64,000 bases of DNA from a virus. Taxonomy: Duplodnaviria > Heunggongvirae > Uroviricota > Caudoviricetes. Positions 15,546 through 33,458 of this stretch are shown piece by piece (positions within the stretch are counted from its first letter, which is position 1; each line of letters begins with the position of its first letter). The stretch is from positions 20,381 through 84,380 of IMG/VR virus record IMGVR_UViG_3300020577_013140. One strand, 5' to 3'. The notes under the pieces are model-generated. The model was not told the origin of the DNA. It did not search any database and saw nothing but the letters and a program-made list of their open reading frames with translations. Both the position numbers and the translations under genes were made by a program.

Positions 15546-16148
15546 TCAACGTATAAACGGATCCCATTCAGGGAACCGAGGGTCGCGCCTTAACCTTACA
15601 GCCATTGGCTTGGGCTTCGGAGGTTCTAGCCTGATCCGTAGAGTCAGTCCGACTTCGTGTGCAGGACGGTCTCCCTTCTTGCGGTTATTAACGATCGCTG
15701 TTAATCCACAATTTGTCCAGTCCGTCTTGCCTCCCTTGGATTGCGCGATGTAGTGGTCCATATCGCAGTCATCCCACTTCATCTGTTCGAGCGTGTACAT
15801 ATCTTTGCCCTTCTGTCTCTCCCATAAAGCCACCTTGGTCAGGTTGGGCTCAACAAGAGGCACACGATCGTATTCCGCAAGTACAATGATGGATGGCACA
15901 CGTATGGTTTGTTTGGCTGTACTCACATGCCGGTCAGTGGGACGAACAGGCAGCGTCAACCAGTCTTCCCACTTGACCGGACCTACGATGTCATGGTTCT
16001 CGTCGACCTCCAGCGCCGTCGCCACTTTCGTAGAAGGGTCCTTGCGCCTTGGTTTGGAAAGGAGGAAAAAAGCACGCCGCACGGATATGAGCCGGAGCGG
16101 CTGCATAAGGCGATTCAACAGCAGTACTTTTTCGTCGAGAATGTTCAT
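15546..16148 (-). CDS. HNH endonuclease
   Basis: DMDHYIAQSKGGKTDWTNCGLTAIVNNRKKG. Confidence 0.55.
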   Translation of the reverse strand: MNILDEKVLLLNRLMQPLRLISVRRAFFLLSKPRRKDPSTKVATALEVDENHDIVGPVKWEDWLTLPVRPTDRHVSTAKQTIRVPSIIVLAEYDRVPLVEPNLTKVALWERQKGKDMYTLEQMKWDDCDMDHYIAQSKGGKTDWTNCGLTAIVNNRKKGDRPAHEVGLTLRIRLEPPKPKPMAVRLRRDPRFPEWDPFIR

Positions 16149-16645
16149 ATGACAACCATGTAGTTTTCGTTCAGTAGTTCCGCCAAGATTGGTCGGACTT
16201 GTGTTTCCCAGTCAAGACCTCCATTACCGCAGCCCACCTTCGGCAGGCAGATCGGCAGGATTTCTTTGGACGCCATTGTATATGATGCCATCACTTGTGG
16301 CCACCATAACGTTAAGGTTATTGCACTGGAGCGGATCAGTGATAAATCTGACGGGTTGCTCCAGTGATGCTTGGTTGGAAACGAGATGAGCCTCCCAGGA
16401 GGGTAAGCAAATGGATGGTTTCCCAGTCCGGCAACCAGGTTCCCCCAATTTTTTCGTACCTCTGGAAATCGCTCGGCCGCATCGCGTGCCAGCCCTTTAC
16501 CCATGATCAACAACCCGTCTCGATTTACAACTCCGTTAGTCGGTATGCAGATCCAGTGGCCCAGTGCATGGTAGTACCACAGGCTCCCTGATTGCGTGCG
16601 CATTGGTGATTTCCTGCCATTGTACGATAAAGGCACCACGACCAA
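16145..16645 (-). CDS. Macro-domain (ADP-ribose binding/processing)-like protein
   Basis: ICIPTNGVVNRDGLLIMGKGLARDAAERF matches a-IVNaaN..GgGV..aI. KVGCGNGGLDWETQVRPIL is the G-rich second motif. The start may be the internal Met at 16603. Confidence 0.4.
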   Translation of the reverse strand: MVVVPLSYNGRKSPMRTQSGSLWYYHALGHWICIPTNGVVNRDGLLIMGKGLARDAAERFPEVRKNWGNLVAGLGNHPFAYPPGRLISFPTKHHWSNPSDLSLIRSSAITLTLWWPQVMASYTMASKEILPICLPKVGCGNGGLDWETQVRPILAELLNENYMVVI

Positions 16646-17015: not shown

Positions 17016-17090
17016 TGCTCCGTACAGGACTTGAACCTGTAGCCTTCTCGTTAGGACCGAGACGCTCTAATCCAGTTGAGCTAACGGAGC
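17016..17090 (-). tRNA. tRNA-Arg(CCT)
   Basis: Cloverleaf with acceptor GCTCCGT/ACGGAGC and anticodon loop GTCCTAA. Confidence 0.7.
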
Positions 17091-17097
17091 GAAGAGG

Positions 17098-17916
17098 TTA
17101 TTGTTGGGTTGCAGCAGAAGCACTATTAAAAACTGGCGGAGCGTTGTCGAAGATTGCTTCCTCCTTGTTCACGACCTTACTAAGTTCGTAAGGCCATTCG
17201 ACTACGTCTGTCCTAAGCACCTTGCTGCCGGGTGGAGGGCGATGTTGCTCCGGGATGGCCACAAAGTCATCCGGGCATAGCTCCCGCTCGACAGTCTGCT
17301 TGCGATAGAAGGCACCGGTCTTAACCCACTTCGGGTAGTCGGCCCAGTTAATACCTTTTTGGAAAAGCATCTCCTGTTGCTCGTCGGCACTTTTACCGTG
17401 CAGCTCTTTGTTCGAATAGTGCGCTTGAGCTGCCGACGAGATGCTATTTCTTCGAGCGTCCTTCTCACGCCACAATAGTACGTTCACAGCTTCGTACTTT
17501 GTCGGAAGCTGCCAAACGCGACAATCAAACGTCGCAGGCTTCACAAGAGGCACTGACAGGCTTTTTCCGAGAAACTCGTTGAACGCCGCAGTGGCGATCG
17601 AAGCCAGTACCGAGGTCAGCTTGTACAGCTTACCATCGAAGAATATCTGTGACTTCGGATTCTCTTGATACAAGATCAAAGAGATCTCATCCGATTGCGT
17701 GTAGCCGATCACGGCCCCAGACTCACGCAGCAGTTGGTCGGTCGCGTAGACAAACGCCGCATGGAGGTCTTCATCAAAGGGTTTCTTGAACCGCTTAGTA
17801 AATGTGTGGAATGCACGCCCATCAATTCGGGCGGCGACTGGAAGCAGAGGGAGTAACGTTCGACCCGTCTCCATTGCTTCATACTCTTTCATCCGATCGC
17901 CAAATTCATCTCTCAT
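17098..17916 (-). CDS. Thg1-like protein (tRNA-His guanylyltransferase / 3'-5' polymerase family, TLP)
   Basis: ARIDGRAFHTF..KPFDEDL..VIGYTQSDEISLIL..FFDGKLYKLTSVLASIATAAFNEF aligns to human THG1L VVRLDGRNFHRF..KPNDSRAL..IVIAYGQSDEYSFVF. Confidence 0.85.
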   Translation of the reverse strand: MRDEFGDRMKEYEAMETGRTLLPLLPVAARIDGRAFHTFTKRFKKPFDEDLHAAFVYATDQLLRESGAVIGYTQSDEISLILYQENPKSQIFFDGKLYKLTSVLASIATAAFNEFLGKSLSVPLVKPATFDCRVWQLPTKYEAVNVLLWREKDARRNSISSAAQAHYSNKELHGKSADEQQEMLFQKGINWADYPKWVKTGAFYRKQTVERELCPDDFVAIPEQHRPPPGSKVLRTDVVEWPYELSKVVNKEEAIFDNAPPVFNSASAATQQ

Positions 17917-17919
17917 AAA

Positions 17920-17949
17920 GAAAAAAGCCTGCGTAAAACGCAGGCGGAA
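17920..17949 (-). terminator. Intrinsic terminator (minus strand) between the tRNA cluster and the Thg1-like gene
   Basis: AAAAAA-GCCTGCG-TAAAA-CGCAGGC. Confidence 0.45.
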
Positions 17950-17950
17950 A

Positions 17951-18053
17951 TGGTGCCCTCGGCAGGATTCGAACCTGCATACGTGCGCTTATCTAGCGCA
18001 TGCTTTCGCCCGGGAATAAGCCGGGAGCCCTAACCAGTTGAAGCTACGAGGGC
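17951..18053 (-). tRNA. Atypical 103-nt tRNA (encoded CCA; anticodon loop CTTATTC giving UAU?) with a 30-nt variable region
   Basis: GCCCTCG..CGAGGGC-A-CCA acceptor, T-arm GCAGG-TTCGAAT-CCTGC, anticodon stem CCCGG/CCGGG, extra hairpin GCATGCGC-TAGATAA-GCGCA. Confidence 0.5.
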
Positions 18054-18256
18054 TATTTAGTGCTGTTCGTCCAAACCTGAGACACAGTCGACCCATCAGG
18101 ATAGATGTAGTGTATGTGGTCAGGATCGTTCTTCGGAACTTTCACCGGCGCAGTTTTGGCTGTCGGTGTATGTTCTTTGTACGTATTGGAAGAGTTGCAG
18201 CCAACGACGATGCCTGCAGTTACGAGCAACGCGATAAAAATCTGAGGCGCTTTCAT
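18053..18256 (-). CDS. Small lipoprotein
   Basis: MKAPQIFIALLVTAGIVVGC lipobox. Confidence 0.45.
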   Translation of the reverse strand: MKAPQIFIALLVTAGIVVGCNSSNTYKEHTPTAKTAPVKVPKNDPDHIHYIYPDGSTVSQVWTNSTK

Positions 18257-18272
18257 GGCTGTAGAAGGGAAT

Positions 18273-18361
18273 TGGCGGATGGGGAGGGATTCGAACCCTC
18301 ACCGGCTTTTAACCGGGCAGCTTAGCAGGCTGCTCTAGCACTCCAACTCTAGCGCCCATCC
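18273..18361 (-). tRNA. tRNA-Ser(GCT), class II, CCA encoded
   Basis: Acceptor GGATGGG/CCCATCC, anticodon loop CTGCTAA, long variable arm. Confidence 0.7.
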
Positions 18362-18400
18362 ATAAACCAACGATGCACGCCTCATCAATAAAAGTCAATC

Positions 18401-18685
18401 TCAATTCTTAGGGAGAGGCTTGAAACGGAGGTGTAAACCTTCTTCATGCCATTTTTTGTTAATCCGAAGAAAGCCTCGGAGGTAAAAGCCTTCCTGATCC
18501 ACCCACCAGCGGGTAATCACCCCTTCGAGCTCGGTAAAATCGTGAGGCTGCCCGTCGTTCAAGACAATGTTTTTGGCGGGAGTATCAAGGTAAAAAGTAA
18601 AGGCCTGTCCATCGTTGCAGTGCAGCTCGCCTGCTAGGTTATGGACGTTGTTATCTTTGTCGCATCGCTGAAGATAAGCTTTCAT
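18401..18685 (-). CDS. hypothetical protein
   Basis: 94-aa ORF. Confidence 0.4.
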   Translation of the reverse strand: MKAYLQRCDKDNNVHNLAGELHCNDGQAFTFYLDTPAKNIVLNDGQPHDFTELEGVITRWWVDQEGFYLRGFLRINKKWHEEGLHLRFKPLPKN

Positions 18686-18734
18686 GAGAAAAATCGAGTT
18701 TTTGCTGAGTCATTAGCGGTTCATGAGTATCCAG

Positions 18735-18971
18735 TCATGTGCAACAATGCACAACGATGTCGTGCTCCTGTTCCTCCATCCAACGAGGTTTGGCTTTCAT
18801 GTCAGTTCGAGGAGGGTTAATTGGTGGATCCTGGCACTCAAACCAGACTACGATGTCTTGTTCCCCTTGAGCTTCAAACCAACGTGCGAAGTGGCGCGCC
18901 TGCTCAATGGTGAGACCGTCGAAGATTACTCTTGCCATAATGTGTTCTTTTCCCATCGACTGTGGCGCCAA
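18735..18971 (-). CDS. hypothetical protein
   Basis: 78-aa ORF; overlaps the 3' end of the next gene. Confidence 0.3.
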   Translation of the reverse strand: MAPQSMGKEHIMARVIFDGLTIEQARHFARWFEAQGEQDIVVWFECQDPPINPPRTDMKAKPRWMEEQEHDIVVHCCT

Positions 18972-19969
18972 TGGCTGTCTGTGCTTACGTGGTTCGGCCG
19001 TACAAACTTTGCCACGTTACTGCGAAAGGCACCGTAATTGAACGCACTGGAATTGCGCACGACATAGCCTTCCATCAAGTCCGGTGTTCTATTCGGAACA
19101 TACAATGACCGGATCTTCTCTTCATCCCATGCGCCGCGATACAGCACTGGAACTGTTTGAAGCCCAAGTAGTTCTGCCCACTCGGTTGTTTCATCCCAGG
19201 ACAAACAAACGTTCCGTTCGTTCCAAATGGAGAACACCTGGAAATACGCACGCAACTGCTTGTAGTGGATGCTGTGTTTAATCAGTAAGTTCTCTCCGCA
19301 CACACGCCAGCCTTCTGGAATTTCATGTGCGACCTGTGTCCACGCGCGCCATACTTCAGCACGGTCCGCACCACTGGCCTTTTCCAAGGAGCGCGCATGA
19401 ACGTAGTCGTTGTAAAGCGTCGTATTTTCACCATCCAGTTTTTCAGTGACCACCACTTCCATTCCATTGAACGGCTCCAAGGAAGGAAGCACCCGGTCAT
19501 CGCTTGAAGGGCAGGACCAAGGCAAATGATAAGTTCGTGGGTACTTGACGTACTTTACAAACAGAGGCAACACTCCACCTTGTGACAGAATCTTCTGTAC
19601 GCTCTCGTCAAAGAACAACTCGCCTTTTAGCCGTGTGCCATTCGGCAAGACCGGATTGCCCCATTTGTCGTATTCTTGGTCTCGGTACAGATGCGCCGGT
19701 AAAAGAGTCTGTGTTATTCCTGCACGTTCTCGCAAGGTCGCCGGAGACAGTGTCGTCTCCTCGGCCTGGATGTGGTGTATGGCACAGAGGCTTGCTCCGT
19801 TGTCCAGGAAGTAACCGCCGGCCTCAGTCGGCTCCGTCCAGAGCCTCCGCTCCATAATATGATGTGCGTCGAGAGGACCAGAGGCCCGACATACTACGCA
19901 GCGATTGTCGTCGCGGGCAAACACAGCCTCACGAAAAGCGTTACGTTCCAGCAAGGTAGAAGTTGTCAT
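18926..19969 (-). CDS. HNH-nuclease-domain / RNA ligase (Rnl2/Rnl5-like nucleotidyltransferase) fusion protein
   Basis: N-terminal CVVCRASGPLDAHHI..LCAIHH (HNH). C-terminal ligase motifs TEKLDGEN (I), CGENL (III), EGYVVR (IV), KFVR (V). Start moved to the Met at 19969 because tRNA-Leu occupies 19976..20056. Confidence 0.65.
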   Translation of the reverse strand: MTTSTLLERNAFREAVFARDDNRCVVCRASGPLDAHHIMERRLWTEPTEAGGYFLDNGASLCAIHHIQAEETTLSPATLRERAGITQTLLPAHLYRDQEYDKWGNPVLPNGTRLKGELFFDESVQKILSQGGVLPLFVKYVKYPRTYHLPWSCPSSDDRVLPSLEPFNGMEVVVTEKLDGENTTLYNDYVHARSLEKASGADRAEVWRAWTQVAHEIPEGWRVCGENLLIKHSIHYKQLRAYFQVFSIWNERNVCLSWDETTEWAELLGLQTVPVLYRGAWDEEKIRSLYVPNRTPDLMEGYVVRNSSAFNYGAFRSNVAKFVRPNHVSTDSHWRHSRWEKNTLWQE

Positions 19970-19975
19970 AGAAAA

Positions 19976-20056
19976 TGCGCCCAGCAGGACTTGAACCTGC
20001 ACCCCTCACGGGACTAGATTTTGAGTCTAGCGCGTCTGCCATTCCACCATGAGCGC
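19976..20056 (-). tRNA. tRNA-Leu(CAA), class II
   Basis: Anticodon arm CTAGA-CTCAAAA-TCTAG, long variable arm. Confidence 0.65.
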
Positions 20057-20065
20057 GTCTGAAGA

Positions 20066-20362
20066 TTATCGACTTGGGTCTCCTATCTCGATTCGACGTA
20101 GTTCCCCAACACCAGGAGGCAGCATTTGGGTTACTTGCTCCCGTTGCCAGGCACGGTACAGGTCCAATGCTTTCTTGCCCTCCGCGAGGAAAAACTCAAG
20201 GGCGTCACCACCATGGAACATCAACGCCGGAATCGACACAGTCGCACCGTCATTGACTTGAAGGAAGGAAATCCTGTCAGCACCATTCTCGGCCGCTCCT
20301 GGAAGGACCTGGACAAGAAACCCCTGTTTCGTTTTTGGACTGCAAAACGTGTGAACGATCAT
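20066..20362 (-). CDS. hypothetical protein
   Basis: ORF shortened to the internal Met because tRNA-Ser occupies 20369..20461. Confidence 0.3.
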   Translation of the reverse strand: MIVHTFCSPKTKQGFLVQVLPGAAENGADRISFLQVNDGATVSIPALMFHGGDALEFFLAEGKKALDLYRAWQREQVTQMLPPGVGELRRIEIGDPSR

Positions 20363-20368
20363 AAATCG

Positions 20369-20461
20369 AGGATGGGGTGGGATTCGAACCCACAGTGCCT
20401 CCCAAACGGGACGCACGCTTGCTTTCCAAGCAAGTGCAATAAACCGTTCTGCCACCCATCC
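20369..20461 (-). tRNA. tRNA-Ser(GGA), class II
   Basis: Acceptor GGATGGG, anticodon arm CTTGC-TTGGAAA-GCAAG, long variable arm. Confidence 0.65.
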
Positions 20462-20468
20462 ATAAAAG

Positions 20469-20789
20469 TTAAATTTCGAGGTGAATACGAATCTTGCAGG
20501 GATTCTCTTTCTCTGCGCGCTTGATCTTGACGACCAACTCGTTGGTAGCCTCGTCCACCGTTTGTTCCGTGGTGAAAGTGAACCCATTCATGCGTTCTTC
20601 CAAGGCGGACATGACCGTCTGGAATATCGCGGCTTCTTCCTGTTCGTTGCGGCTGGTGCTCATTGGTCTTTGTGGATTCTCTGCTTTGTTGTGTGCGAAA
20701 AAATTTGGGTCACAGATGGGGCAATGTTGATAAACTTCACAGTAGCACATCGGGCTACCGTCTTCTCGACGTTCGATGATTTCAGCCAT
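20469..20789 (-). CDS. hypothetical protein (Cys motif CYCEVYQHCPIC)
   Basis: 106-aa ORF. Confidence 0.4.
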   Translation of the reverse strand: MAEIIERREDGSPMCYCEVYQHCPICDPNFFAHNKAENPQRPMSTSRNEQEEAAIFQTVMSALEERMNGFTFTTEQTVDEATNELVVKIKRAEKENPCKIRIHLEI

Positions 20790-20808
20790 GATTTGATTTA
20801 GTTGAAAA

Positions 20809-20887
20809 TGGCGCCCATGGCAGGACTCGAACCTGCAACCCTCTCCTTAGAACGGAGTGGCTCTTGTTCCGATTGAGCTACATGGGC
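20809..20887 (-). tRNA. tRNA-Arg(TCT), CCA encoded
   Basis: GCCCATG..CATGGGC-G-CCA; anticodon loop GTTCTAA. Confidence 0.6.
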
Positions 20888-20891
20888 AAAA

Positions 20892-21197
20892 TTACCACCA
20901 ACGGTTGACGAGAACTCTGGTGCCTTTTTTGGCTCCGTTGTCAAACAGCCAATCCGCCACAATGTCGTCACCACGCTCGATGACGCCGTAACGATTTCTA
21001 AACAGAACTTCTCGCTCGTTCTTTATGTCGGTTGCCGGCTTGTACTCGTCGTAGACGTAGTACGACACAAAGGTGTCGTTGGCGCCAGGGTTATCCTTAA
21101 AGAAAGCTTCCCTGACTTTATCCGGTGCGTTCTGAATATCAAACACCTGCGCTCGCCAGAAGTTCTCGCCTTTGCGTTTGTCAGTTGAATAAACCAT
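20892..21197 (-). CDS. hypothetical protein
   Basis: 101-aa ORF. Confidence 0.4.
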   Translation of the reverse strand: MVYSTDKRKGENFWRAQVFDIQNAPDKVREAFFKDNPGANDTFVSYYVYDEYKPATDIKNEREVLFRNRYGVIERGDDIVADWLFDNGAKKGTRVLVNRWW

Positions 21198-21405
21198 ATC
21201 TTATCGATAACAATCGACAGTAGTCATAAATGGAATTTGCAGCGCGGCTGTCAGGGGTTCCTCCCGTAGGTTTAGCTTACCCGACGATTCTCGTGCCTTT
21301 ACCGTGCACGCGCTGCAACAATACCACAGGTTACGGATTACCTGCCAAGACCACCCCTGTGAAGGGCAAGTTGTCTGCTTGAGTGCTAATGCACCGGTAT
21401 TAAGA

Positions 21406-21489
21406 TGGCGGACATGGAGGGACTCGAACCCCCAGTTTCAGCTCCAATTACGGATCCAGCGTTCCGAAGACGCGGCCGGCTACATGTCC
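21406..21489 (-). tRNA. Atypical tRNA-like gene (84 nt, CCA encoded; anticodon arm unresolved)
   Basis: Acceptor GGACATG/CATGTCC-G-CCA, T-arm GGGGG-TTCGAGT-CCCTC; the D/anticodon region is about 9 nt too long. Confidence 0.4.
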
Positions 21490-21496
21490 GTGTAAA

Positions 21497-22618
21497 TTAC
21501 TTTTTGGTCTTTTTCTTGACCTTCTTGGAGCGCCGGGCCTTCGGGGCAGCGATCTCCCTGGCCGTCACCACTTGCCCGGTGAGCTCGCAATACTGGTTGC
21601 GATTCTGCCAGCGGCTTTCATACCGCTTGGAATTCCGAACATTGTGTCGCTCGAAGAATCGCCGAACTTTTTCGAGATCGACTTGATCAGTCGGATGCTT
21701 CAGGTTGTGTTTGTCGAGTATCCTGAGCATTTCCTTCAGCTTATGCTCATAATGGAAACGCCGGTCGAGCAACCACAGCGTACCGAGCACACGCTCTTGC
21801 GTACTGAGCTTACCCTTCTTCTGAAGCTTGGCCCAATATTTATGCAAGTCTTCGACGTTGTGTACTTCAAGCCCGAGGTCGTGGTGAAGCCATCCTTCGC
21901 GCCAGATCTTGACGACAGTATCATCCGAGCCAATCCGGAGGTATATAAACTTTCGGGCGATCTGGTACGTGTACCATGCTGCCCGGAATCGGAAGTCAGA
22001 CGTGAAGGCCGCAAAGCATCGACCGAGAAGGTTCGATACCAAATCATCCAGCTCCTTGCCTTTGGCTGAGAGCTCGTCTTTGTAGCGGTTCAGTGCATAA
22101 CGAATGTGTTCGCACTCCTCAAACAACTGATAAACCTCGGCCAACGCCGGGTCGCTCCGACGCAACACACTCTCGAATTCTGGGCGGTGCTTCCGTTGAT
22201 ACGTTGCTGCGGCGTGCTTCTCCTCTATTTCGGCCTTGGCCTCAGGTGAGGGCGCAGCATCTATCTGAGCTGTCCACCAGTCATCGAGATGATCTTCCAA
22301 GTCGTCCGCCTGTGAACTTTCATGATTGCCGCAAATAGCGGTCGCGAATAGTGAAGGGCGGTCCATCACCTCATTATCGACGCCTGAGCCAAGTATCCAA
22401 TAGGCTCCGTTTCCTTTTCCTCCCAGCCAGGCAGGCCACAGCTTGGGAAGTAGCTCCGCGATGTCCGGGAAGCGTTCTTTAAGGGACTCAAACACTTCAG
22501 GCTTGGTCATCCGATAAAGGCTAAAATAGATCTTACTGATGCGTTCCGGGTCAGATAGTCCCATTGGGTTTTTCAGGTTCAACTGCCGGAGGAGTGCAAA
22601 CCGAACAGAGGCACTCAT
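21497..22618 (-). CDS. hypothetical protein with Lys-rich C-terminal tail
   Basis: 373-aa ORF ending ...KARRSKKVKKKTKK. Confidence 0.45.
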   Translation of the reverse strand: MSASVRFALLRQLNLKNPMGLSDPERISKIYFSLYRMTKPEVFESLKERFPDIAELLPKLWPAWLGGKGNGAYWILGSGVDNEVMDRPSLFATAICGNHESSQADDLEDHLDDWWTAQIDAAPSPEAKAEIEEKHAAATYQRKHRPEFESVLRRSDPALAEVYQLFEECEHIRYALNRYKDELSAKGKELDDLVSNLLGRCFAAFTSDFRFRAAWYTYQIARKFIYLRIGSDDTVVKIWREGWLHHDLGLEVHNVEDLHKYWAKLQKKGKLSTQERVLGTLWLLDRRFHYEHKLKEMLRILDKHNLKHPTDQVDLEKVRRFFERHNVRNSKRYESRWQNRNQYCELTGQVVTAREIAAPKARRSKKVKKKTKK

Positions 22619-22726
22619 CCTGGCTGAGAAGGGTTTGTAGGCTGTATCGACGAATCTGGGCTTTGCAACGTAAACACAAAACCCGCTTGATAAGAATATG
22701 ACTGTAGTCGCCGTAAGAGATGTGCT

Positions 22727-23110
22727 TCATAACGCAAGAGCTAGCTGCCTCAGCTGATCAACTGCCGCATCCGGTGATGGCGCAGGGTCGACAAACCGAA
22801 AGGCAGGGGCCGCCTTTTTCCGGTCTTTCTCCTCCTCCTCGCGCTCTTCTTCTTTGGTAGGAGCCGGACCCATTTGCTTCAGTACGCAAGGTTCACAGTA
22901 GCCCAACAGCTGATACTTGAAAGCATACCATGGGTGGCTAAATGCCTTTGCCTTCCCCTTGCAGAGTTGGCAATTTTCACCGTCATAGAAAATAGGAAAG
23001 CCATCGCTGTCCCGTTTCCATTGTTTGCACTCAGGAAACTTCGGAATATGCCGCTTCCAGAACGGCACAGGTTTTTCTTCTTTGTCGGATTTCTTCATGA
23101 GGTTGGCCAC
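22727..23110 (-). CDS. Cys-rich hypothetical protein (CQLCKGK..CEPC)
   Basis: 127-aa ORF. Confidence 0.4.
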   Translation of the reverse strand: MANLMKKSDKEEKPVPFWKRHIPKFPECKQWKRDSDGFPIFYDGENCQLCKGKAKAFSHPWYAFKYQLLGYCEPCVLKQMGPAPTKEEEREEEEKDRKKAAPAFRFVDPAPSPDAAVDQLRQLALAL

Positions 23111-23574
23111 ACATATGGCAAGTTATCAGGCACTACCCAATTAAACTGGCGGTACCACTCCGGGGCTTTCCGCAGCAAGTTGCTGCGATGTGAATCATGG
23201 AAAGCGTCCGTACCGAACCACGGAGGCTTTAAGGCGTCTTCAGTTTTCGTTGCAGGGTTTACGGCAGGTACCAACGCAATAATCCGTGCACGACAGGAAT
23301 CCCTATAGTTACGACGGACCCATTCATCGCAGATTTCAATACCGTATTCCGCCAGGGAAGGCTCGAATCCTTTCCACATCTTGGCGGCCGGGTGATTCAC
23401 CCACCCTTTCGGGTTGAACGGCTCAACGATCCAGCCGGTAACTGTTTCGACCACCTTCGTTCTGGTCAACGCTTGAAGTAGTTGAACACACTCAACGCGC
23501 TGTTTACCAAGTCGTTTATTGTCCAGCGCCCAAGCTGAGCGCCGGAAGTCAGGATACGGAAGAAAGGTCTGCAT
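23095..23574 (-). CDS. conserved hypothetical protein (N-terminal MQTFLPYPDF..LDNKRLGKQRVE motif)
   Basis: 159-aa ORF; the family was not confidently recognised. Confidence 0.45.
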   Translation of the reverse strand: MQTFLPYPDFRRSAWALDNKRLGKQRVECVQLLQALTRTKVVETVTGWIVEPFNPKGWVNHPAAKMWKGFEPSLAEYGIEICDEWVRRNYRDSCRARIIALVPAVNPATKTEDALKPPWFGTDAFHDSHRSNLLRKAPEWYRQFNWVVPDNLPYVWPTS

Positions 23575-23579
23575 GAAAT

Positions 23580-23661
23580 TGGTGCGAGTGACAGGAGTCG
23601 AACCTGCAAGGGTTTCCCCACGTCGTCCTAAGCGACGCGCGTCTGCCGTTCCGCCACACTC
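23580..23661 (-). tRNA. tRNA-Leu(TAG), class II
   Basis: Anticodon arm CGTCG-CTTAGGA-CGACG, long variable arm. Confidence 0.65.
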
Positions 23662-24104
23662 GCAAAAGTCTTCACCGCGTGACAGTTTGGGCAGAGTGAC
23701 TGTAAATTCTCAATGCGGTTATCGAAATGATCACCATTGATATGGTCCAGCTCCAATGGTATAGAAGTTCCCTGCCACTTACGACGGTTACAATGTTGGC
23801 ATTTGTCTGGGAGTAATCCTTCCGCGACAAGCCTTTTACGCAGCTTGGATGGTGTAATCTTTACTACAGTTTCTCGTGTTAGGTAATCGGTGACTGGGCG
23901 GGCAGGTGGGAAGGTCTTTCCACGCCTCCAAGCTGATCCTGTAAAGTGCGAGCTGTCTATCCCGAGTTGCTGCGCTCTTTTTGTCAAGTGCGTTTGCGCT
24001 CCGGTTGCCGGAGTAACATTTAACTTTTTGCAAACTTGTGCCCAAGATGAGGACGCAGCAATGACAGGTGAGAGCAGTTCTTTTGTATAACGATTTCGTG
24101 GCAT
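23628..24104 (-). CDS. HNH homing endonuclease
   Basis: LELDHINGDHFDNRIENLQSLCPNCH; the C-terminal 11 codons overlap the tRNA-Leu gene. Confidence 0.7.
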   Translation of the reverse strand: MPRNRYTKELLSPVIAASSSWAQVCKKLNVTPATGAQTHLTKRAQQLGIDSSHFTGSAWRRGKTFPPARPVTDYLTRETVVKITPSKLRKRLVAEGLLPDKCQHCNRRKWQGTSIPLELDHINGDHFDNRIENLQSLCPNCHAVKTFASVAERQTRVA

Positions 24105-24145
24105 ACGTACTAATCTTATCGACAGTACGTATGCCAGTCAAGGAA

Positions 24146-25483
24146 CTATTCGTAGTTCCGAATCGCCCTTACAAAGGGGATCTGAGGAACTCCATATTCC
24201 GACAGCTGTTGGTATTCCACAGTAGCCATCTCGCCGATGAACTCCTCACGGCGTTCATACAGTTCACGTAGCCATTCACGATCACCCTCAATATTGGAGG
24301 CAAACGCTGTCTCACCTGTGGGAGTAGGATCGTGAAGCTTGAGCACAATGCGTTTGGCGCACCCGACCCAATCTCCATTACCCTCCTCGATGGCAACGAC
24401 TTCAAACTCGTCGTCATCCTCGTGCTTAAGCTTTAGCATCTGTTTGGATCGTCCATGCTTGAACTCGCATTTACCCCAGCGGATCATCAGACCTTCACCC
24501 TTGGCTGCCTTGTTGGCTTCCATGAGCTTGGTGATCTCGGCCTTGGATTTGGCCACGACGTACGGGTGCATCACCAGATGGCGGCCGACCTTGTATTTCT
24601 TCTGGATATCCTCAATCAAGGTCTTGACCGCAGCATACCGCTCAATCCACGGAGTTTCCGTAGTAATACCATTGAAGCCGTAACCATCGAACACGTAGAA
24701 CTTGACCAGCTCTTCGGATTCGGCACGCATCTCAGGCGTGATGTCCTTGGGTTGATAGACCACGCTGACGATCTCAACCAACCGGTTCAGTCGTTCCCGC
24801 AACTCGTGATTGTGCGCTTCGCCGTCAATGAACGCTTCCGGATGCTCCGCGAAGATAGGCGAAAGGGCCGCACGGATATGGGGAATCGTATGAAATAGTT
24901 TTCCGCCTGTCGACAGTGCGCCCACCGCGGTGTTCTGACAGCGGATGCCGTTGAGCTTGTCTTGGACATAGACCGGATATTCGACTTCATCTTCTCGGTC
25001 GACGAACTTGTCACCCTTCATGGGTTTCTTGAACGCGACTTTGTCGACCGCCTTGATATCAGCCGTGTAGCCAAGGGTTTGCTTCTTGTCCCATTTGGCT
25101 TTCGCTTCCTTGATGGCTTGCTCGGCCGCCGTGGTAGCGTTCGCCTTGCCGGTGTTCTTGGCTTCACAGGTATGCGCCGCGGAGGTCGTCAACTTGCCAC
25201 CGACAACACCCTCTTCAACGAAGTAGCTGTTGCCTTTGGTATAGATGCGCCACTGCTGGAGCTTACCGTTAGAATTTCGTTTGTAGAGAGTTGCTAGTGT
25301 TTCGGACATGTTGTTGAATTGAATTGCGGCGCCACACGCTCCACCGTTTGCAACCGGTGCCCAATGCTTAATCGGGTTGCTACCCTGAGTTGTGGTCTTC
25401 GGGGCCGTCGCCCCTGTTTCGGATACCATGTACGCCGTATCTCGGTAGTTCTGAGCACGGAACGTTTTGATCACGGGCCGCAA
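24146..25483 (-). CDS. ATP-dependent DNA ligase with N-terminal extension
   Basis: Motifs KLNGIR (I), FIDGEAH (III), EGLMIR (IV), LKLK (V); start uncertain. Confidence 0.7.
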   Translation of the reverse strand: MRPVIKTFRAQNYRDTAYMVSETGATAPKTTTQGSNPIKHWAPVANGGACGAAIQFNNMSETLATLYKRNSNGKLQQWRIYTKGNSYFVEEGVVGGKLTTSAAHTCEAKNTGKANATTAAEQAIKEAKAKWDKKQTLGYTADIKAVDKVAFKKPMKGDKFVDREDEVEYPVYVQDKLNGIRCQNTAVGALSTGGKLFHTIPHIRAALSPIFAEHPEAFIDGEAHNHELRERLNRLVEIVSVVYQPKDITPEMRAESEELVKFYVFDGYGFNGITTETPWIERYAAVKTLIEDIQKKYKVGRHLVMHPYVVAKSKAEITKLMEANKAAKGEGLMIRWGKCEFKHGRSKQMLKLKHEDDDEFEVVAIEEGNGDWVGCAKRIVLKLHDPTPTGETAFASNIEGDREWLRELYERREEFIGEMATVEYQQLSEYGVPQIPFVRAIRNYE

Positions 25484-25962
25484 AAAAATGGTGGGGAGGG
25501 CAGGTAATTCTCCTGCATTGCACTGCGCTTTGTCGACCGCAACTTCGCTTTATCAGAGCGCTGCGTTCGATTATGCCTAGCAGACTCAAGCTTAAAATGC
25601 TCGTGCTTCCAGTTATCGAAGCTCCCTTCCCGTTGAATACAAAGACCGGACGATGCTACCCGCCTATGTGCTGCTTCGCTGATCGCAGCTAGGCCAGATG
25701 GTTCAGCTTTACCTGCACCGTCCGGTCTACACCGATACATGACGTCGGGCTCGCCACTCCCGATAAACGAGGGTTTAATCCATCACCCGTCCAGCCGTTT
25801 TGGATCGGCTGCCTGTGTCACTGCATCCACAGCGCTTTCACGTATCTGAAGTTGTGCTTCGCGCTTCAATCGAGCACGAACCGGCGTACCGTCCTTCTTG
25901 TGATAGGTGGACGAATTACAAGAACGATCGTTGTGCTTGCGATGGTGCGCTTTCATTGAAAT

Positions 25963-26070
25963 TGGTGTGCGAGGCGGGACTTGAACCCGCATAGCCCTCA
26001 CGAACAGGTTGGTGCCTGCTTGAGTCGGTATGGGCATCCCCGGATACCACTCCGGAGCGTATCTCACCTA
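25963..26070 (-). ncRNA. tRNA-like element (clear T-arm + acceptor 3' half + CCA; 5' half unresolved)
   Basis: GCGGG-TTCAAGT-CCCGC-CTCGCAC-A-CCA; no canonical 5' acceptor partner was found. Confidence 0.25.
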
Positions 26071-26124
26071 CAATCCCTTTGGTTATTTGTTCCCTCGGGG
26101 TGACGGCTCACACATGAAGATAAA

Positions 26125-26197
26125 AGCCACAGGTGGGAATTGAACCCACATAACCCAGTTTACAAAACTGGTGCATTACCGGTCTAGCCACTGTGGC
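26125..26197 (-). tRNA. tRNA-Thr(TGT)
   Basis: Acceptor GCCACAG/CTGTGGC, anticodon arm CCAGT-TTTGTAA-ACTGG. Confidence 0.7.
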
Positions 26198-26206
26198 GAA
26201 GAGGAA

Positions 26207-26277
26207 TAGCTGTGAGTGGAATCGAACCACCATCAACGGCTTATGAGTCCGCTGCTCTACCACTGAGCTACACAGCT
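26207..26277 (-). tRNA. tRNA-Met(CAT) (elongator/initiator/Ile2 not distinguished)
   Basis: Anticodon loop CTCATAA, T-arm GGTGG-TTCGATT-CCACT. Confidence 0.6.
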
Positions 26278-26284
26278 ATGATTG

Positions 26285-26833
26285 CTACGCTCGCAGCTTG
26301 CGAGCAAGACGACGAAGCGCCGTGCCGGCCGACTTCGGTATGGTTTCGTTGGCCGGTCCGGCGTAGAGGACGTCGGCCCAGCGCTCCAGGACCCGGTCGG
26401 CGATCCCAGCAGGCAAAGTATCCGTCAGGAACTCCACCACCCGCTGGGCCTCGGTATCGTAGTCGTTGAGGTATTCACCGGTTTCCACAGTAGGCCAAGA
26501 AACCGTCACGGACGCCGAGCGGCGAGGACGGCTGGGCGTACTGACTCGCGGGGCGATCCGGATGCGCCGCGTGGCACCTGGCGAAACCGAGGTCACAGCC
26601 AGAGGCGGCGTCGGGAAGCCAGAGGCAAGAGAGATGATGGAGGATTGCGGGAAGTTGAAAAGACCGTCATACGCATCCACAGCTTCGTACCACGGGAGGT
26701 TGTTGGCGCCGGGGAAGAAAGAACTCGAGGCCGGGCGGGCAGTCAAGTGCTTCGTGATGCGCACCGTGCGTCCACTCGGAAGAACGACAAAAGAACCAAT
26801 TGGAGTGGTATGTGAACGATAAGTTGAGGGCAT
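26285..26833 (-). CDS. hypothetical protein
   Basis: Start moved to the internal Met to avoid tRNA-Thr at 26864..26934. Confidence 0.4.
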   Translation of the reverse strand: MPSTYRSHTTPIGSFVVLPSGRTVRITKHLTARPASSSFFPGANNLPWYEAVDAYDGLFNFPQSSIISLASGFPTPPLAVTSVSPGATRRIRIAPRVSTPSRPRRSASVTVSWPTVETGEYLNDYDTEAQRVVEFLTDTLPAGIADRVLERWADVLYAGPANETIPKSAGTALRRLARKLRA

Positions 26834-26863
26834 GGAATTAGTCTGGTTGAATGAGATGAGTTG

Positions 26864-26934
26864 TAAATAAACGAGCCTCAGTCGGGAGTCGAACCCGGGT
26901 CTTCTCCTTACCAAGAAGATGTTCTACCGTTAAA
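26864..26934 (-). tRNA. tRNA-Thr(GGT)
   Basis: Anticodon arm TCTTC-TTGGTAA-GGAGA. Confidence 0.6.
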
Positions 26935-27145
26935 CTACAGAGGCTTAAAATTTCAGTGGTACGTGAGCCAGGTGCATGCGGCTGCAATAACAGCGCATCC
27001 TAGGAGCGCCAAGGCACAGCGCTTTGCAAACAACAGCTGCGTCGGTATCTTGAGTGTGCCTAGAAAGTGTCCGCTACGTTCGAAGGAGTAGCGATACACT
27101 ATCCGACGTTTCCGCACTCGAGTTGACGAACGTGCGACAGGCATA

Positions 27146-27862
27146 TCAACTCCCTTTGATTCTTCGGCGCCAGTAAGCCAGCCCAAGGAGAGGAAATACT
27201 CCGAGGAGAACCTTGCCTGCTGAAGCCTCAGGGACAACAGCGACATTGCCGATAAGCCCTTGCGCCAGGCGGTAATCCCCTTGAGACGTTGACGGTCCCC
27301 ACCAGATGGCTGCGTCACCGGCTACCGCAAGCTCCTCAGGAGAGTGGATCCAGGAAGTGACCTGCCCGTAAGCACCGTCAGTCATTCCATGCGTTGACGC
27401 ACGGAAACGCCCAGAAGACAACGAAGGAGTTTCGTCATACAACGACTCCCACACCAACACCTGAAGCGCGACGGCTTCGGCGTTGTTGTGCACCTGGTCA
27501 TGGAACGTGAAGTACACACGAACAGCGCGTTCGAGGCCACCCGGAGCCCAATCAGGAGTCTGCCAAGAAGGCATTCCCTGGGCCACGAGGATCGGAATCG
27601 GGGTGAATTGCCCCGAACTCAGATGCGCGCCGATGTCCGTGCAGTACGTCAGCCACGAGGCTCCAGCCGTCGGAGTGGCGCGAAGCTGCCCGGCATTGAC
27701 CGACGAAAAGTCGCTGCCATCAATGGACACACGAGCAGTTCCGCCGAATAAAGATGGTACGTTGAGCCAGGAATCAACAGCGAGGTTGTCTCCGAGGGCC
27801 GTGAATGCGGTCATGAGGAACATGACAGCGCCGAACAGTAGTGACCGGATGTTTTTCTTCAT
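27146..27862 (-). CDS. Secreted protein with PEP-CTERM-like C-terminal sorting signal
   Basis: Signal peptide MKKNIRSLLFGAVMFLMTAFTALG. C-terminus VPEASAGKVLLGVFPLLGLAYWRRRIKGS: PEA, a TM helix, then an Arg cluster. Confidence 0.55.
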   Translation of the reverse strand: MKKNIRSLLFGAVMFLMTAFTALGDNLAVDSWLNVPSLFGGTARVSIDGSDFSSVNAGQLRATPTAGASWLTYCTDIGAHLSSGQFTPIPILVAQGMPSWQTPDWAPGGLERAVRVYFTFHDQVHNNAEAVALQVLVWESLYDETPSLSSGRFRASTHGMTDGAYGQVTSWIHSPEELAVAGDAAIWWGPSTSQGDYRLAQGLIGNVAVVPEASAGKVLLGVFPLLGLAYWRRRIKGS

Positions 27863-27900
27863 TGGGTTATGTATCTTAACTTTGATTATGAGGTAAAGCA

Positions 27901-27973
27901 AGCGCTACCAGGGAATCGAACCCTGCGAAGAGAGTTTTGCAGACTCCTCAGTTACCCAGCTCCGTCGTAGCGC
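27901..27973 (-). tRNA. tRNA-Cys(GCA)
   Basis: Anticodon arm GGAGT-CTGCAAA-ACTCT. Confidence 0.6.
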
Positions 27974-27979
27974 AGAAAT

Positions 27980-28058
27980 TGGGGTGACCAACGGGACTCG
28001 AACCCGCAACCGACAGCTTCACAAGCTGTGGCTCTACCGATTGAGCTATGGCCACCAT
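27980..28058 (-). tRNA. tRNA-His(GTG) with genomically encoded G-1, C73 and CCA
   Basis: G-GTGGCCA..TGGTCAC-C-CCA; anticodon arm ACAGC-TTGTGAA-GCTGT. Confidence 0.7.
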
Positions 28059-28059
28059 A

Positions 28060-28797
28060 TCAGGGCAAAACGAGCTCTCGTTCCCCTATGGAAAATTTAC
28101 CGTCCGTGAACACGCCGTAATACCTTAAGTAAGTATCAAGGCAGTAGTTTTGGCTCCCATGCACGACGCCTGTGCGTCGGTTGGTATCGTACTTCCAGAC
28201 ATCTCGACGAGGCGTATGACCGAATAACTGGTTCAACCCAGGGGTGGGTAGAAACTCAGACGTGTCACACCAGAGGAGACCTCCGAATGGCGTTCGTCCT
28301 CCACGTGCCGTACCGGCTTCAAAGAACCAGTGCGGACGTTCCTGCCGGAGTTTCATCTGAGCTTGCACAGACTGTCCTTCGAGCCACTCCTTCGGTGCCG
28401 CCCGGAAAGAAGCAGGGATATGGGAAGTCGTTACGCCAGCGTGTGTGCATAGCCAGTCTTCTTCCCAGTGAACGAATTCAAATCGGTCCCAATGTTTTTG
28501 AGTAACGAGATCTCGAATGGCTTCGCATTTAGCTGTCGTATAGCCGGAGCAACGGGTGTGGCGACTTGGAAAGGCGTAGTGCACGTCGTGGTTGCCCCAG
28601 ATGAATACGTCTTCCGGATGAAGGCGCATCCGGCGGATCAACCAGGTGGCCGTATGCTGCGACAGCTCTTCATCATCATGGAAATCGTCAAACCAGTCAC
28701 CGAGAAAGACTACTTTGTCTGGTAACTCTTTTAGAAGAATCTCTTCAACCGCAATGGTGTTATGATGGATATCCGGAATGATGACGGTCTTTTTCAT
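28060..28797 (-). CDS. Calcineurin-like metallophosphoesterase
   Basis: IPDIHHN, GDWFDDFHDD and GNHD motifs; start at MKKTVII to avoid tRNA-Val. Confidence 0.65.
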   Translation of the reverse strand: MKKTVIIPDIHHNTIAVEEILLKELPDKVVFLGDWFDDFHDDEELSQHTATWLIRRMRLHPEDVFIWGNHDVHYAFPSRHTRCSGYTTAKCEAIRDLVTQKHWDRFEFVHWEEDWLCTHAGVTTSHIPASFRAAPKEWLEGQSVQAQMKLRQERPHWFFEAGTARGGRTPFGGLLWCDTSEFLPTPGLNQLFGHTPRRDVWKYDTNRRTGVVHGSQNYCLDTYLRYYGVFTDGKFSIGERELVLP

Positions 28798-28803
28798 CGA
28801 AAA

Positions 28804-28878
28804 TGGTGGGCGCTGCAGGGATTGAACCTGCGACATGCTGTGTGTAAGACAGCTGCTCTACCGCTGAGCTAAGCGCCC
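28804..28878 (-). tRNA. tRNA-Val(TAC), CCA encoded
   Basis: Anticodon arm GCTGT-CTTACAC-ACAGC. Confidence 0.7.
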
Positions 28879-28914
28879 GAAATTGATTTGCTGGGTTGCC
28901 CCAGCGGCCGATGG

Positions 28915-29460
28915 CTACGACCCGTGGTGGTCGATCGGCTTCCAGTTTTTCTTTGCCATGTATATCGCGACCTCATCAAAGGTGACAGGGCGATATCCGT
29001 GAACGTCCACGCCAACGTCGATTGACCGAGCATTGGGGTCGTCCGGCAAAGAGCCATGGGAATGGCCGTACAGTTGCCAGGTGCCGTGGTGTGACTTGTT
29101 CCACACTCTCATGGCATAGTGGCTTAATATAATCCGTTGTCCTTCGACGTCTACCTCTGCTTCAGCTGGAAGAAAGGTAACCTTGTGATCCCACCGTCGT
29201 TCCTGACGGACGCGCTTCATTTCTTTGTCGTGATTTCCCATGACGAAGAAGATGTGTCCATTCAGTCTGGAGAGATATCTTTCTGAGGGGGCGAAGGAGA
29301 AATCCCCCAAGTGATACACGGTTTCCTCCGGTCCAACAACTGCGTTCCAGTTTTGGATCAGTGATTCATCCATGTCGTAAACGCTCTTAAAAGGGCGGTT
29401 ACAATACCGAATAATATTTGCGTGGCCGAAATGTGTATCGGCCGTGAAGTATGTGTTCAT
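28915..29460 (-). CDS. Metallophosphoesterase (lambda-phosphatase / YfcE-like)
   Basis: ADTHFGH, GDFSF and GNHDKE motifs. Confidence 0.65.
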   Translation of the reverse strand: MNTYFTADTHFGHANIIRYCNRPFKSVYDMDESLIQNWNAVVGPEETVYHLGDFSFAPSERYLSRLNGHIFFVMGNHDKEMKRVRQERRWDHKVTFLPAEAEVDVEGQRIILSHYAMRVWNKSHHGTWQLYGHSHGSLPDDPNARSIDVGVDVHGYRPVTFDEVAIYMAKKNWKPIDHHGS

Positions 29461-29514
29461 TAAAACTAGAAGAGCCGCCTAGTCTCCCAGGCGGCTCCGC
29501 ACCGATTGGTGCTA

Positions 29515-30039
29515 TTAGAAGGTCCAGCGCAGTCCGGCTCGTACGAGCGACTCGCCACCATTGTTGAGGTAGTCGCGCCAGCGGTATTGGACGTCCGTGA
29601 ACGTTCCGACGTGCTGCGTAAAGCGGTACTCAACTCCTCCACCGGCGTAATAAAATCGATCGTTTTGATGGTCAAAGTCAAATCCGATTCCACCAAGCAC
29701 ATAAGGCGCAAAGCCAGTGTCCTTGATAGGTAGTCGAACGACCGGGCCGATCGAAAGATTTTGGAAAAAGCCTCCGTCATCAAAGCGGTCCTTGGACGTC
29801 GCCAATGAGAGGCCGATATTCTTCGTGACGAAGTAATCGGCTTGAAGGCCAGCGCCCCATCGGCCGTCACCGGCCACTTGGCCAGTTGCCTGATAGGTTG
29901 CGAACGTTGATACTGCCAACTCCTTGGCCTGATAAGGCGATACGGAGGCTGTGGTGTTGGTGGCGCCTAGGGCACCAATCGCAAACGCGAACATTGCGAT
30001 CAACGCGAAGAACAGGGTCTTGAGTTTATTGAACTTCAT
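29515..30039 (-). CDS. Outer-membrane beta-barrel protein (OmpA/OmpW-like)
   Basis: Signal peptide, alternating amphipathic strands, C-terminal ...RAGLRWTF with terminal Phe. Confidence 0.55.
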   Translation of the reverse strand: MKFNKLKTLFFALIAMFAFAIGALGATNTTASVSPYQAKELAVSTFATYQATGQVAGDGRWGAGLQADYFVTKNIGLSLATSKDRFDDGGFFQNLSIGPVVRLPIKDTGFAPYVLGGIGFDFDHQNDRFYYAGGGVEYRFTQHVGTFTDVQYRWRDYLNNGGESLVRAGLRWTF

Positions 30040-30053
30040 GTGTTTACTGTCTG

Positions 30054-30341
30054 TTATGGTTTTTCTGAGACTGGCCCGATGGTAAACTCCACCCCGAGAT
30101 TACTCTCGTTGCAAAGCGCTTCGAGCCTCTTGAGGCGTGCTTGCGCGGCCTCAAGACGGGTTATCGCCTCTACCGTATTCTGTTGCACAGCGGCGCAATC
30201 CCCTTGCGCTGCCTGCAGCTCTTGTTGGAACACGCCGAGGGCGTGAACAGCTTCGCCAATATGATTCTGCTGCCCTTCATACACTCGTTGTAGAGCCTTC
30301 AGGTCTTCCACCACACTAGCTAACGTCACGACTTTTTGCAT
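30054..30341 (-). CDS. coiled-coil hypothetical protein
   Basis: Start at MQKVVTL (ATG 30341) because tRNAs occupy 30356..30570. Confidence 0.4.
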   Translation of the reverse strand: MQKVVTLASVVEDLKALQRVYEGQQNHIGEAVHALGVFQQELQAAQGDCAAVQQNTVEAITRLEAAQARLKRLEALCNESNLGVEFTIGPVSEKP

Positions 30342-30355
30342 AGTTCCCCCAAATT

Positions 30356-30433
30356 TGGTGCACATGGCAGGATTCGAACCTGCAACCCTCAGCTCCGTAG
30401 GCTGATGCTCTGATCCAATTGAGCTACACGTGC
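30356..30433 (-). tRNA. tRNA-Arg(ACG), CCA encoded
   Basis: Anticodon arm TCAGC-CTACGGA-GCTGA. Confidence 0.7.
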
Positions 30434-30495
30434 GAAAGTTTCCTAATTGTCTATGAGGGATGCACGGAAAGCAAGAGCCAATTACTGACAACAAA

Positions 30496-30570
30496 TGGCC
30501 CCGGAGGTCGGTATCGAGCCGACGTCTCGGCTTTTTCAGAGCCGCGCTAATCCACCTCAGCTACTCCGGG
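30496..30570 (-). tRNA. tRNA-Phe(GAA), CCA encoded
   Basis: Anticodon arm CGGCT-CTGAAAA-AGCCG, T-arm GTCGG-CTCGATA-CCGAC. Confidence 0.6.
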
Positions 30571-30620
30571 GAAAGAAAAAAGCCCCTCTTTCAAGGGGCC
30601 CGTGAAACCAATCAACTGCC

Positions 30621-31527: not shown

Positions 31528-31532
31528 GATTG

Positions 31533-32794: not shown

Positions 32795-32804
32795 ATACTG
32801 AAGA

Positions 32805-33457: not shown

Positions 33458-33458
33458 C

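Follow-up and report, generated by a model that had tools for sequence, protein, structure and literature searches.

Which task does a relative of the tRNA-His guanylyltransferase Thg1 perform in a phage that carries a whole array of transfer RNA (tRNA) genes of its own? The question is raised by an open reading frame (ORF) on the minus strand of a 64,000 nucleotide (nt) stretch of DNA from an uncultured phage of the Caudoviricetes (IMG/VR record IMGVR_UViG_3300020577_013140, positions 20,381 to 84,380), referred to below as the window. A preliminary description, made from the letters of the DNA, had placed a Thg1-like gene at 17098..17916, and these coordinates proved exact: the ORF starts with ATG and encodes 272 amino acids (aa). 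Sequence comparison confirms its product as a member of the Thg1 superfamily, namely a bacterial-type Thg1-like protein (TLP), predicted by homology to be a templated 3'-5' nucleotidyltransferase. As to its role, we favour on balance a general maintenance of the 5' ends of tRNAs, in which the G-1 residue of tRNA-His would also be restored.

Identification of the TLP gene

The profile search proposed as a check by the preliminary description gave a significant match to the Pfam family PF04446 (Thg1), with an expect value (E) of 5.9e-30 and 104.3 bits against a cut-off of 29.2, covering residues 7-138 of the product and positions 2-130 of the 130 positions of the profile. PHROG 4717, named 'tRNA-His guanylyltransferase', matches residues 1-211 (E 3.5e-81). 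A search of the PDB sequences retrieved six solved Thg1/TLP structures, the top one being 4kgk, the TLP of Bacillus thuringiensis (BtTLP), which aligns over residues 3-211 (E 1.8e-41, 145.6 bits). The similarity to Thg1/TLP enzymes seen beforehand is therefore far above chance, but its extent had been put at about 120 residues and is in fact about 210, because the PHROG 4717 and 4kgk matches reach residue 211. The motifs quoted at the time are all found, RIDGRAFHTF at residues 30-39, KPFDE at 45-49 and YTQSDEISL at 72-80. The profile PF14413 (Thg1C) matches the TLP weakly (E 0.021, 15.5 bits against a cut-off of 26.3) and is present in some close homologues; the C-terminal domain is covered by the 4kgk alignment, through residue 211, and by the fold search described below. 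No NCBIfam model matches the TLP.

Catalytic residues and predicted fold

In the alignment with BtTLP, residues E13, R30, D32, K45, S75, D76, E77 and R133 of the phage protein correspond to E12, R28, D30, K43, S74, D75, E76 and R131. In the Bacillus enzyme D30 and D75 bind metal and E76 is the third conserved carboxylate, K43 and S74 serve the 5'-activation, and R28, R131 and E12 hold the incoming nucleoside triphosphate (NTP) (PMC3701042). The phage residues D32, D76 and E77 also match D29, D76 and E77 of the human enzyme hTHG1. All three conserved carboxylates, two binding metal and one supporting an NTP-binding arginine, are thus kept in the TLP. Conservation was assessed in an alignment of the phage protein with 39 homologues of 46-71% identity, in which 39 columns are invariant across the 40 sequences. 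E13, R30, D32, S75, D76, E77 and R133 are among them, and K45 is absent from the invariant list. The metal-coordinating carboxylates, which the preliminary description had singled out for inspection, are accordingly present, aligned with those of BtTLP and invariant. Read from the sequence, the codons of R30-I31-D32, with the NTP-binding arginine and the first metal-binding carboxylate, lie at 17821..17829 on the minus strand, and those of S75-D76-E77, with the serine of the activation step and the second and third carboxylates, at 17686..17694 on the same strand.

MaTLP, the TLP of the archaeon Methanosarcina acetivorans, gauges the length of the acceptor stem by means of a flexible beta-hairpin (PMC4820378). 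An AlphaFold2 model of the phage TLP, built on the 40-sequence alignment, has a mean predicted local distance difference test (pLDDT) of 92.6 and a predicted template modelling score (pTM) of 0.88, and contains a long beta-hairpin (residues 202-241) which, as far as the model goes, may be the equivalent of the hairpin of MaTLP. The structural comparison suggested earlier was carried out with Foldseek against the PDB and returned Thg1/TLP folds alone: all 32 matches at E <= 0.001 are Thg1/TLP chains, the best being BtTLP with template modelling (TM) scores of 0.81-0.90, normalised to the target.

A TLP rather than a true Thg1

True Thg1 is specific for tRNA-His and adds G-1 opposite A73 without a template. 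The eukaryotic enzymes (human 3OTB, yeast 5XOX and Candida 3WBZ) share with the phage protein the superfamily, the palm-like catalytic core and the three carboxylates, but are 20-25% identical to it and differ from it at the HINNLYN motif. In the search of PDB sequences BtTLP scored 145.6 and MaTLP 54.3 bits, against 35-45 bits for the human, yeast and Candida Thg1. The histidine of HINNLYN stacks on the anticodon base G36 of tRNA-His in eukaryotic Thg1 (PMC6471195). At this position the phage protein reads ARRNSIS and BtTLP SKNSIS, and in the alignment with 5xox H154 of the yeast enzyme (ScThg1) is replaced by R155, so that both the motif and the anticodon-stacking histidine are missing. From this replacement of HINNLYN by ARRNSIS the phage protein is classified, at the level of sequence, as a TLP and not as a true Thg1.

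The closest relative of known structure, both in sequence and in fold, is BtTLP, with a structural core that is 42% identical, the same catalytic residues and an equally TLP-type sequence at the HINNLYN site (KNSIS, RRNSIS in the phage protein). Unlike BtTLP, the phage TLP is encoded by a phage and sits within a tRNA array. It also carries a C-terminal extension of about 60 aa (212-272) with conserved residues R235, N250 and F256, which lies outside the BtTLP sequence alignment and is common to its own subfamily, and has S161 where BtTLP has M158 and ScThg1 N161. MaTLP (PDB 5AXK-5AXN) shares the fold (TM 0.73-0.79) and serves as the mechanistic model, but is archaeal and has far less sequence similarity to the phage protein (E 1.3e-13, 54 bits).

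The tRNA-His(GTG) gene of the window is located at 27980..28055 on the minus strand, with C73 and CCA encoded. The preliminary description had extended it to 28058 and had reported a G-1 opposite C73; the G-1:C73 pair is there, the end coordinate is not, as G-1 is base 28056. For comparison we used an IMG/VR context sample, consisting of the best 80 of at least 592 contigs with a relative of the TLP and of up to 10 kb on each side of the gene. The tRNA-His genes near TLP genes in the loci L017, L024 and L066/L067 also encode G-1 opposite C73; in L066 this is read after correction of the ARAGORN register by the T-arm. Since the phage G-1 is encoded opposite C73, a non-templated addition opposite A73 is neither expected nor needed. 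The name 'tRNA-His guanylyltransferase' probably misdescribes these phage genes, because the anticodon-reading motif is missing and the examined phage tRNA-His genes encode their G-1; as a database name it is a family label which does not establish function.

Position in the tRNA array and conservation of the locus

The tRNA array spans 24 kb on the minus strand (17016..41102) and comprises 34 tRNAs found by ARAGORN and two found by Rfam only; a transfer-messenger RNA (tmRNA) is included. The TLP gene had been described as lying immediately downstream of a tRNA block. It does adjoin tRNA genes, but lies within the block, at its transcriptionally downstream end, with tRNA genes on both sides and all of them on the minus strand. 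Downstream, tRNA-Arg(CCT) (17016..17090, minus strand, found by ARAGORN and Rfam) starts 7 nt past the stop codon of the TLP gene. Upstream, an unusually long tRNA-like gene of about 100 nt ends about 35 nt ahead of the ATG, tRNA-Ser(GCT) follows at 18273..18361 (minus strand, ARAGORN), and a gene for an RNA ligase is found about 1 kb from the TLP gene.

This arrangement is conserved in metagenomic relatives. In L006, L008 and L009, whose TLPs are 61-70% identical to that of the window, the order is RNA ligase, tRNA-Ser(GCT), the odd 100-nt tRNA, TLP, tRNA-Arg(CCT), a 76-aa ORF, a macrodomain ORF and HNH. tRNA-Arg(CCT) occupies the same position in L001 as in these three, and the RNA ligase is syntenic with the TLP gene in L001, L003, L004, L006, L007, L008 and L009. 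An identical TLP is present on contigs of at least four sequencing runs. A contig of 182,660 bases encodes an identical TLP as well.

Of the 80 loci of the sample, 22 have tRNA genes no farther than 10 kb from the TLP gene, 14 within 2 kb and 6 within 500 nt, and 142 of the 145 tRNAs point in the same direction as the TLP gene. Adjacency to tRNA genes as a general rule was rejected, as there is no tRNA within 10 kb at 58 of the 80 viral loci and none within 20 kb of the TLP gene of the Caulobacter phage CcrColossus, which carries a CCA-adding enzyme 6 kb upstream. Genes of the RNA-repair type, i.e. two types of RNA ligase, RlaP (PF10127), an AAA_33 kinase and a metallophosphoesterase, are found within 5 kb in 17 of the 80 loci. 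The idea that phage TLPs share a universal partner gene was likewise rejected: when the neighbours within 5 kb were clustered for 84 loci, no family occurred in more than seven of them. In several IMG/VR loci an initiator-type tRNA-Met (C1xA72) adjoins the TLP gene, 41 nt upstream of it in L020 (9890..9960) and L022 (7831..7901).

Predicted role in the upkeep of tRNA 5' ends

BtTLP prefers 5'-truncated tRNAs over the -1 addition by 5-160-fold, adds all four templated nucleotides, acts on tRNA-Phe too and efficiently adds a templated G-1 to C73-tRNA-His (PMC3061083). MaTLP contacts the acceptor stem and the elbow of a truncated tRNA and does not touch its anticodon, and has a second, anticodon-dependent binding mode for the addition of G-1 to tRNA-His (PMC4820378). 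Templated 3'-5' addition that kinetically favours 5'-truncated tRNAs is established for BtTLP and MaTLP only. It is because of the properties of BtTLP, i.e. the preference for truncated tRNAs, the use of four nucleotides and the templated G-1, that general 5'-end upkeep appears to us the somewhat more probable role of the phage enzyme. From the context we count in its favour the flanking tRNA genes on the same strand, the kept gene order, the nearby RNA ligase and the large genomes of the carriers. The preference of the preliminary description for repair over canonical G-1 addition seems reasonable on the same comparative grounds, since G-1 is encoded opposite C73 and BtTLP favours truncated tRNAs.

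By homology the TLP would be a two-metal-ion enzyme acting on tRNA with a recessed 5' strand. The 5'-monophosphate would be activated with ATP or GTP, an NTP pairing with the opposing base of the 3' strand would be added (at positions 72, 71 and so on, or opposite C73 in the case of tRNA-His), pyrophosphate would be removed, and addition would end once the acceptor stem has its full length. In infection the tRNA pool, that is the 36 tRNAs of the phage and possibly host tRNAs, would be kept usable in this way: 5' ends shortened by misprocessing or nuclease attack would be rebuilt and the G-1 of tRNA-His would be added again if lost.

An enzyme dedicated to tRNA-His would share part of this chemistry. 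It would place a Watson-Crick G-1 opposite C73 after RNase P has cut at +1 and not at -1, on the tRNA-His of the phage, the host or both, and general repair would be a side activity. The efficient templated G-1 addition by BtTLP (PMC3061083), the separate anticodon-dependent mode of MaTLP for tRNA-His (PMC4820378) and the C73 of the phage's own tRNA-His are in line with such a dedication, as is the fact that 4 of the 80 viral loci have a tRNA-His gene no more than 10 kb from the TLP gene, in L017 at a distance of 321 nt. However, every examined phage tRNA-His has a genome-encoded G-1, the residue by which Thg1 reads the anticodon is not kept (H154 to R155), the kinetics of BtTLP favour truncated tRNAs over -1 addition, and in the window the TLP gene is 10 kb away from tRNA-His and adjoins tRNA-Arg and tRNA-Ser genes. 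We consider the dedicated role unlikely, although it is the alternative to be taken most seriously.

Several points weigh against general 5'-end upkeep. The literature searched revealed no process by which tRNAs lose 1-3 nt from their 5' ends in the course of infection; the anti-phage tRNases described there attack the anticodon loop, the T-loop or the acceptor stem on its 3' CCA side. The adjacency counts are descriptive, having no background control; at 58 of the 80 viral loci and in CcrColossus the gene has no tRNA within 10 kb and 20 kb, respectively, and the type of RNA ligase found in the window is adjacent in 3 of the 80 loci and is thus lineage-specific. As for expression, a consensus scan finds a terminator-like hairpin with a T-run (17927..17945, minus strand, a pattern match only) between the tRNA-like gene and the ATG of the TLP gene, and no ribosome-binding site (Shine-Dalgarno) is visible directly upstream of this ATG. 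Both the substrate of the phage TLP and its repair role in vivo are what we infer from the biochemistry of its homologues.

The hairpin and the missing Shine-Dalgarno would also suit a passenger gene without function in this phage. This explanation is hardly credible to us: the ORF is intact and of full length with all its catalytic residues, the identical protein recurs on contigs of at least four sequencing runs, and position and sequence are kept in relatives at 61-70% identity, with 39 columns invariant in 40 sequences.

A possible editing of tRNA 5' ends and the aberrant tRNAs

Among TLPs, a physiological repair role in vivo has been demonstrated solely for that of protist mitochondria, DdiTLP3 of Dictyostelium, which serves in 5'-editing (PMC6471195). 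The phage TLP is an enzyme of the same class, but the DdiTLP3 system requires tRNA genes with encoded 5' mismatches, and these are general neither in the phage nor in other TLP loci. Were the phage tRNAs edited in a similar manner, mismatches at positions 1-3 of the acceptor stem would be removed and rewritten by the TLP from the 3' strand. Some tRNAs have a suitable appearance: the acceptor stem of one (39764..39838) is topped by two U:C mismatches, a second of 114 nt (36441..36554) carries C3:U70, and a tRNA-Leu in L053 is mismatched at positions 2-3. Against this, 32 of the 34 ARAGORN tRNAs of the window have fully paired acceptor stems; tRNA-Thr(GGT) is an exception with a single mismatch at position 6, beyond the edited positions. 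Mismatches within the first three acceptor pairs occur in 2 of the 36 window tRNAs, both of them aberrant and one, 39764..39838, probably degenerate. Nor are mismatches at positions 1-3 in excess among the 160 tRNAs examined at other TLP loci: apart from two odd cases, they are artefacts of the register in initiator tRNAs, whose C1xA72 is normal. A candidate for the 5' exonuclease was not identified. With its clean stems in 32 of 34 tRNAs and no excess in 160, the 'editing' which the preliminary description had named beside repair found no support; we rejected it for the phage tRNAs on these grounds and regard it as very improbable.

The aberrant tRNA at 39764..39838 (minus strand, 'tRNA-???' in ARAGORN) carries CUA in an anticodon loop of 8 nt, UCUAGUAA, and begins 2 nt past the CCA of tRNA-Gly(TCC). 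Pattern scans of the IMG/VR and JGI metagenomes did not find it, and homologues of the ORF adjacent to it are few. The sole informative relative is L093, a short ENA contig related to the tRNA array, in which a tRNA-Ala lies downstream of the homologous ORF and no tRNA of this kind upstream. Because it was not found elsewhere and is absent from L093, the tRNA is probably degenerate, with a suppressor or frameshift-type tRNA as a conceivable alternative. The same contig encodes at 55..411 a 118-aa product with a Pfam match to ribosomal protein S10, and this ORF adjoins the homologue of the window ORF 39280..39756.

The 114-nt tRNA at 36441..36554 (minus strand, Rfam 47 bits) has about 47 nt in place of the 7-nt anticodon loop. 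For a group I intron this insertion would be far too short. The array which holds this insertion-bearing tRNA also encodes the RNA ligase.

Other genes of the array and its surroundings

The tRNA-like gene upstream of the TLP gene (17951..18053, minus strand, CCA encoded) is missed by ARAGORN and found by Rfam (47.1 bits for 17954..18053; the CCA extends to 17951). Its RNA has five arms, as have the copies of the relatives (L006 3552..3650, L008 9837..9936 and L009 2234..2331). Compensatory changes are seen in both of its internal hairpins, while the loops CTTATTC and TAGATAA are invariant. One possible reading is a class-II-like tRNA that would have a variable arm of 30 nt and the anticodon UAU (Ile, AUA), another a tRNA-Ile(GAU)-like molecule with a 35-nt insertion in the D-loop. 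The tmRNA (34825..35240, minus strand), which lies midway along the array, was not reported by the ARAGORN run and is matched over its full length by Rfam RF00023 (108.9 bits). tRNA-Trp was not found in the array.

The RNA ligase (18926..20002, minus strand; PF09414 E 4.7e-30, PHROG 24030 E 8.4e-127) has its KxDG motif in the sequence EKLDGEN and is preceded by an HNH-like zinc-finger domain at the N-terminus of the fusion protein. Jumbo phages of Caulobacter, Ralstonia, Salicola and Acinetobacter share this fusion (PHROG 24030), and no sequence match to the ligase was found in the PDB. Further genes on the minus strand encode a pyrimidine-dimer glycosylase (23095..23574), an ATP-dependent DNA ligase (24146..25483) and two metallophosphoesterases (28060..28836 and 28915..29460), which bracket tRNA-Val and abut tRNA-His. 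The first of the two has a weak match, below the cut-off, to the ligase-associated phosphoesterase PdeM (E 1e-5). These enzymes may act in the healing of RNA or DNA ends; a polynucleotide kinase was not identified near their genes.

On the downstream side of the TLP gene the minus strand encodes an HNH endonuclease (15546..16148) and a stand-alone DarG-like macrodomain (16145..16645; PDB 5m3i E 1.5e-9, NCBIfam DarG E 5.6e-14). The latter match is far below the equivalog cut-off. The gene is the second downstream of the TLP gene, is kept in the relatives, and is a candidate counter-defence gene against DNA ADP-ribosylation of the DarT type. Several neighbouring ORFs have no Pfam match. The window further encodes a 2275-aa protein with matches to virion-structural PHROGs, a ribonucleotide reductase and glycosyltransferases, and looks like a part of the genome of a large phage.

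Given these neighbours, the TLP could act on small RNAs other than ordinary tRNAs, such as the tmRNA or the 100-nt tRNA-like RNA, whose 5' ends it would extend or activate, or could join the RNA ligase in a broader repair of RNA. One Dictyostelium TLP reportedly acts on non-tRNA substrates. In the lineage of the window the RNA ligase is kept at about 1 kb, other phages have RlaP, kinase and phosphoesterase genes as neighbours, the conserved odd tRNA-like gene is directly upstream and the tmRNA belongs to the same array. Yet no family of neighbours is shared by more than 7 of the 84 TLP loci, and the acceptor stem of the 100-nt RNA is perfectly paired and offers no recessed 5' end. We hold this explanation to be improbable.

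A bolder proposal, in our view as improbable, is that the TLP, the HNH-RNA ligase and the phosphoesterases of the array constitute a module for tRNA maintenance or counter-defence, in which 5' ends cut by an undescribed host nuclease would be rebuilt, or that the TLP would mature the aberrant tRNAs 39764..39838 and 36441..36554. If either version were true, it would give the first physiological substrate for bacterial-type TLPs.

Distribution of phage TLPs and significance

Homologues of the TLP are present in at least 164 GenBank phage records, besides the at least 592 IMG/VR viral contigs, and a large protein database holds more than 7,800. Sixty of the 164 GenBank records, taken as a spread sample, come almost without exception from genomes of 88-635 kb, and most of the copies in them are annotated as 'tRNA-His guanylyltransferase'. 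The carriers include CcrColossus (gp300), Rak2-like jumbo phages, Bacillus phage Bcp1, Pseudomonas phage 201phi2-1 and the Lak megaphages. Genome papers on jumbo phages list the gene as a tRNA-turnover function (PMC7760394), and a 2019 review of the Thg1/TLP family does not mention phages (PMC6471195). Reports of experiments on a phage TLP were looked for in the literature, and none was found.

No GenBank phage copy is more than 48% identical to the one described here. A megablast search with 6 kb gave no DNA match of the window to GenBank phages, and a 519-aa ORF gave no tblastn match. The gene belongs to the identical family as the PHROG 4717 phage genes (E 3.5e-81) but differs in its setting, the CcrColossus copy being away from tRNA genes and the window copy standing between tRNAs and adjoining an RNA ligase. 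In large phages the family has been annotated widely before, and the window copy is an ordinary new member of it; its novelty is low because phage TLP genes have been annotated by the hundred, and to these copies it adds little. What does distinguish it is an especially tidy context, with flanking tRNA genes and an RNA ligase next to the TLP gene. The phage of the window is uncultured, and the cultured carriers CcrColossus, Bcp1 and 201phi2-1 are better test systems. Phages with a TLP in a dense tRNA array provide a natural setting for asking what damages the 5' ends of tRNAs in infection, and whether the repair of these ends benefits the phage.

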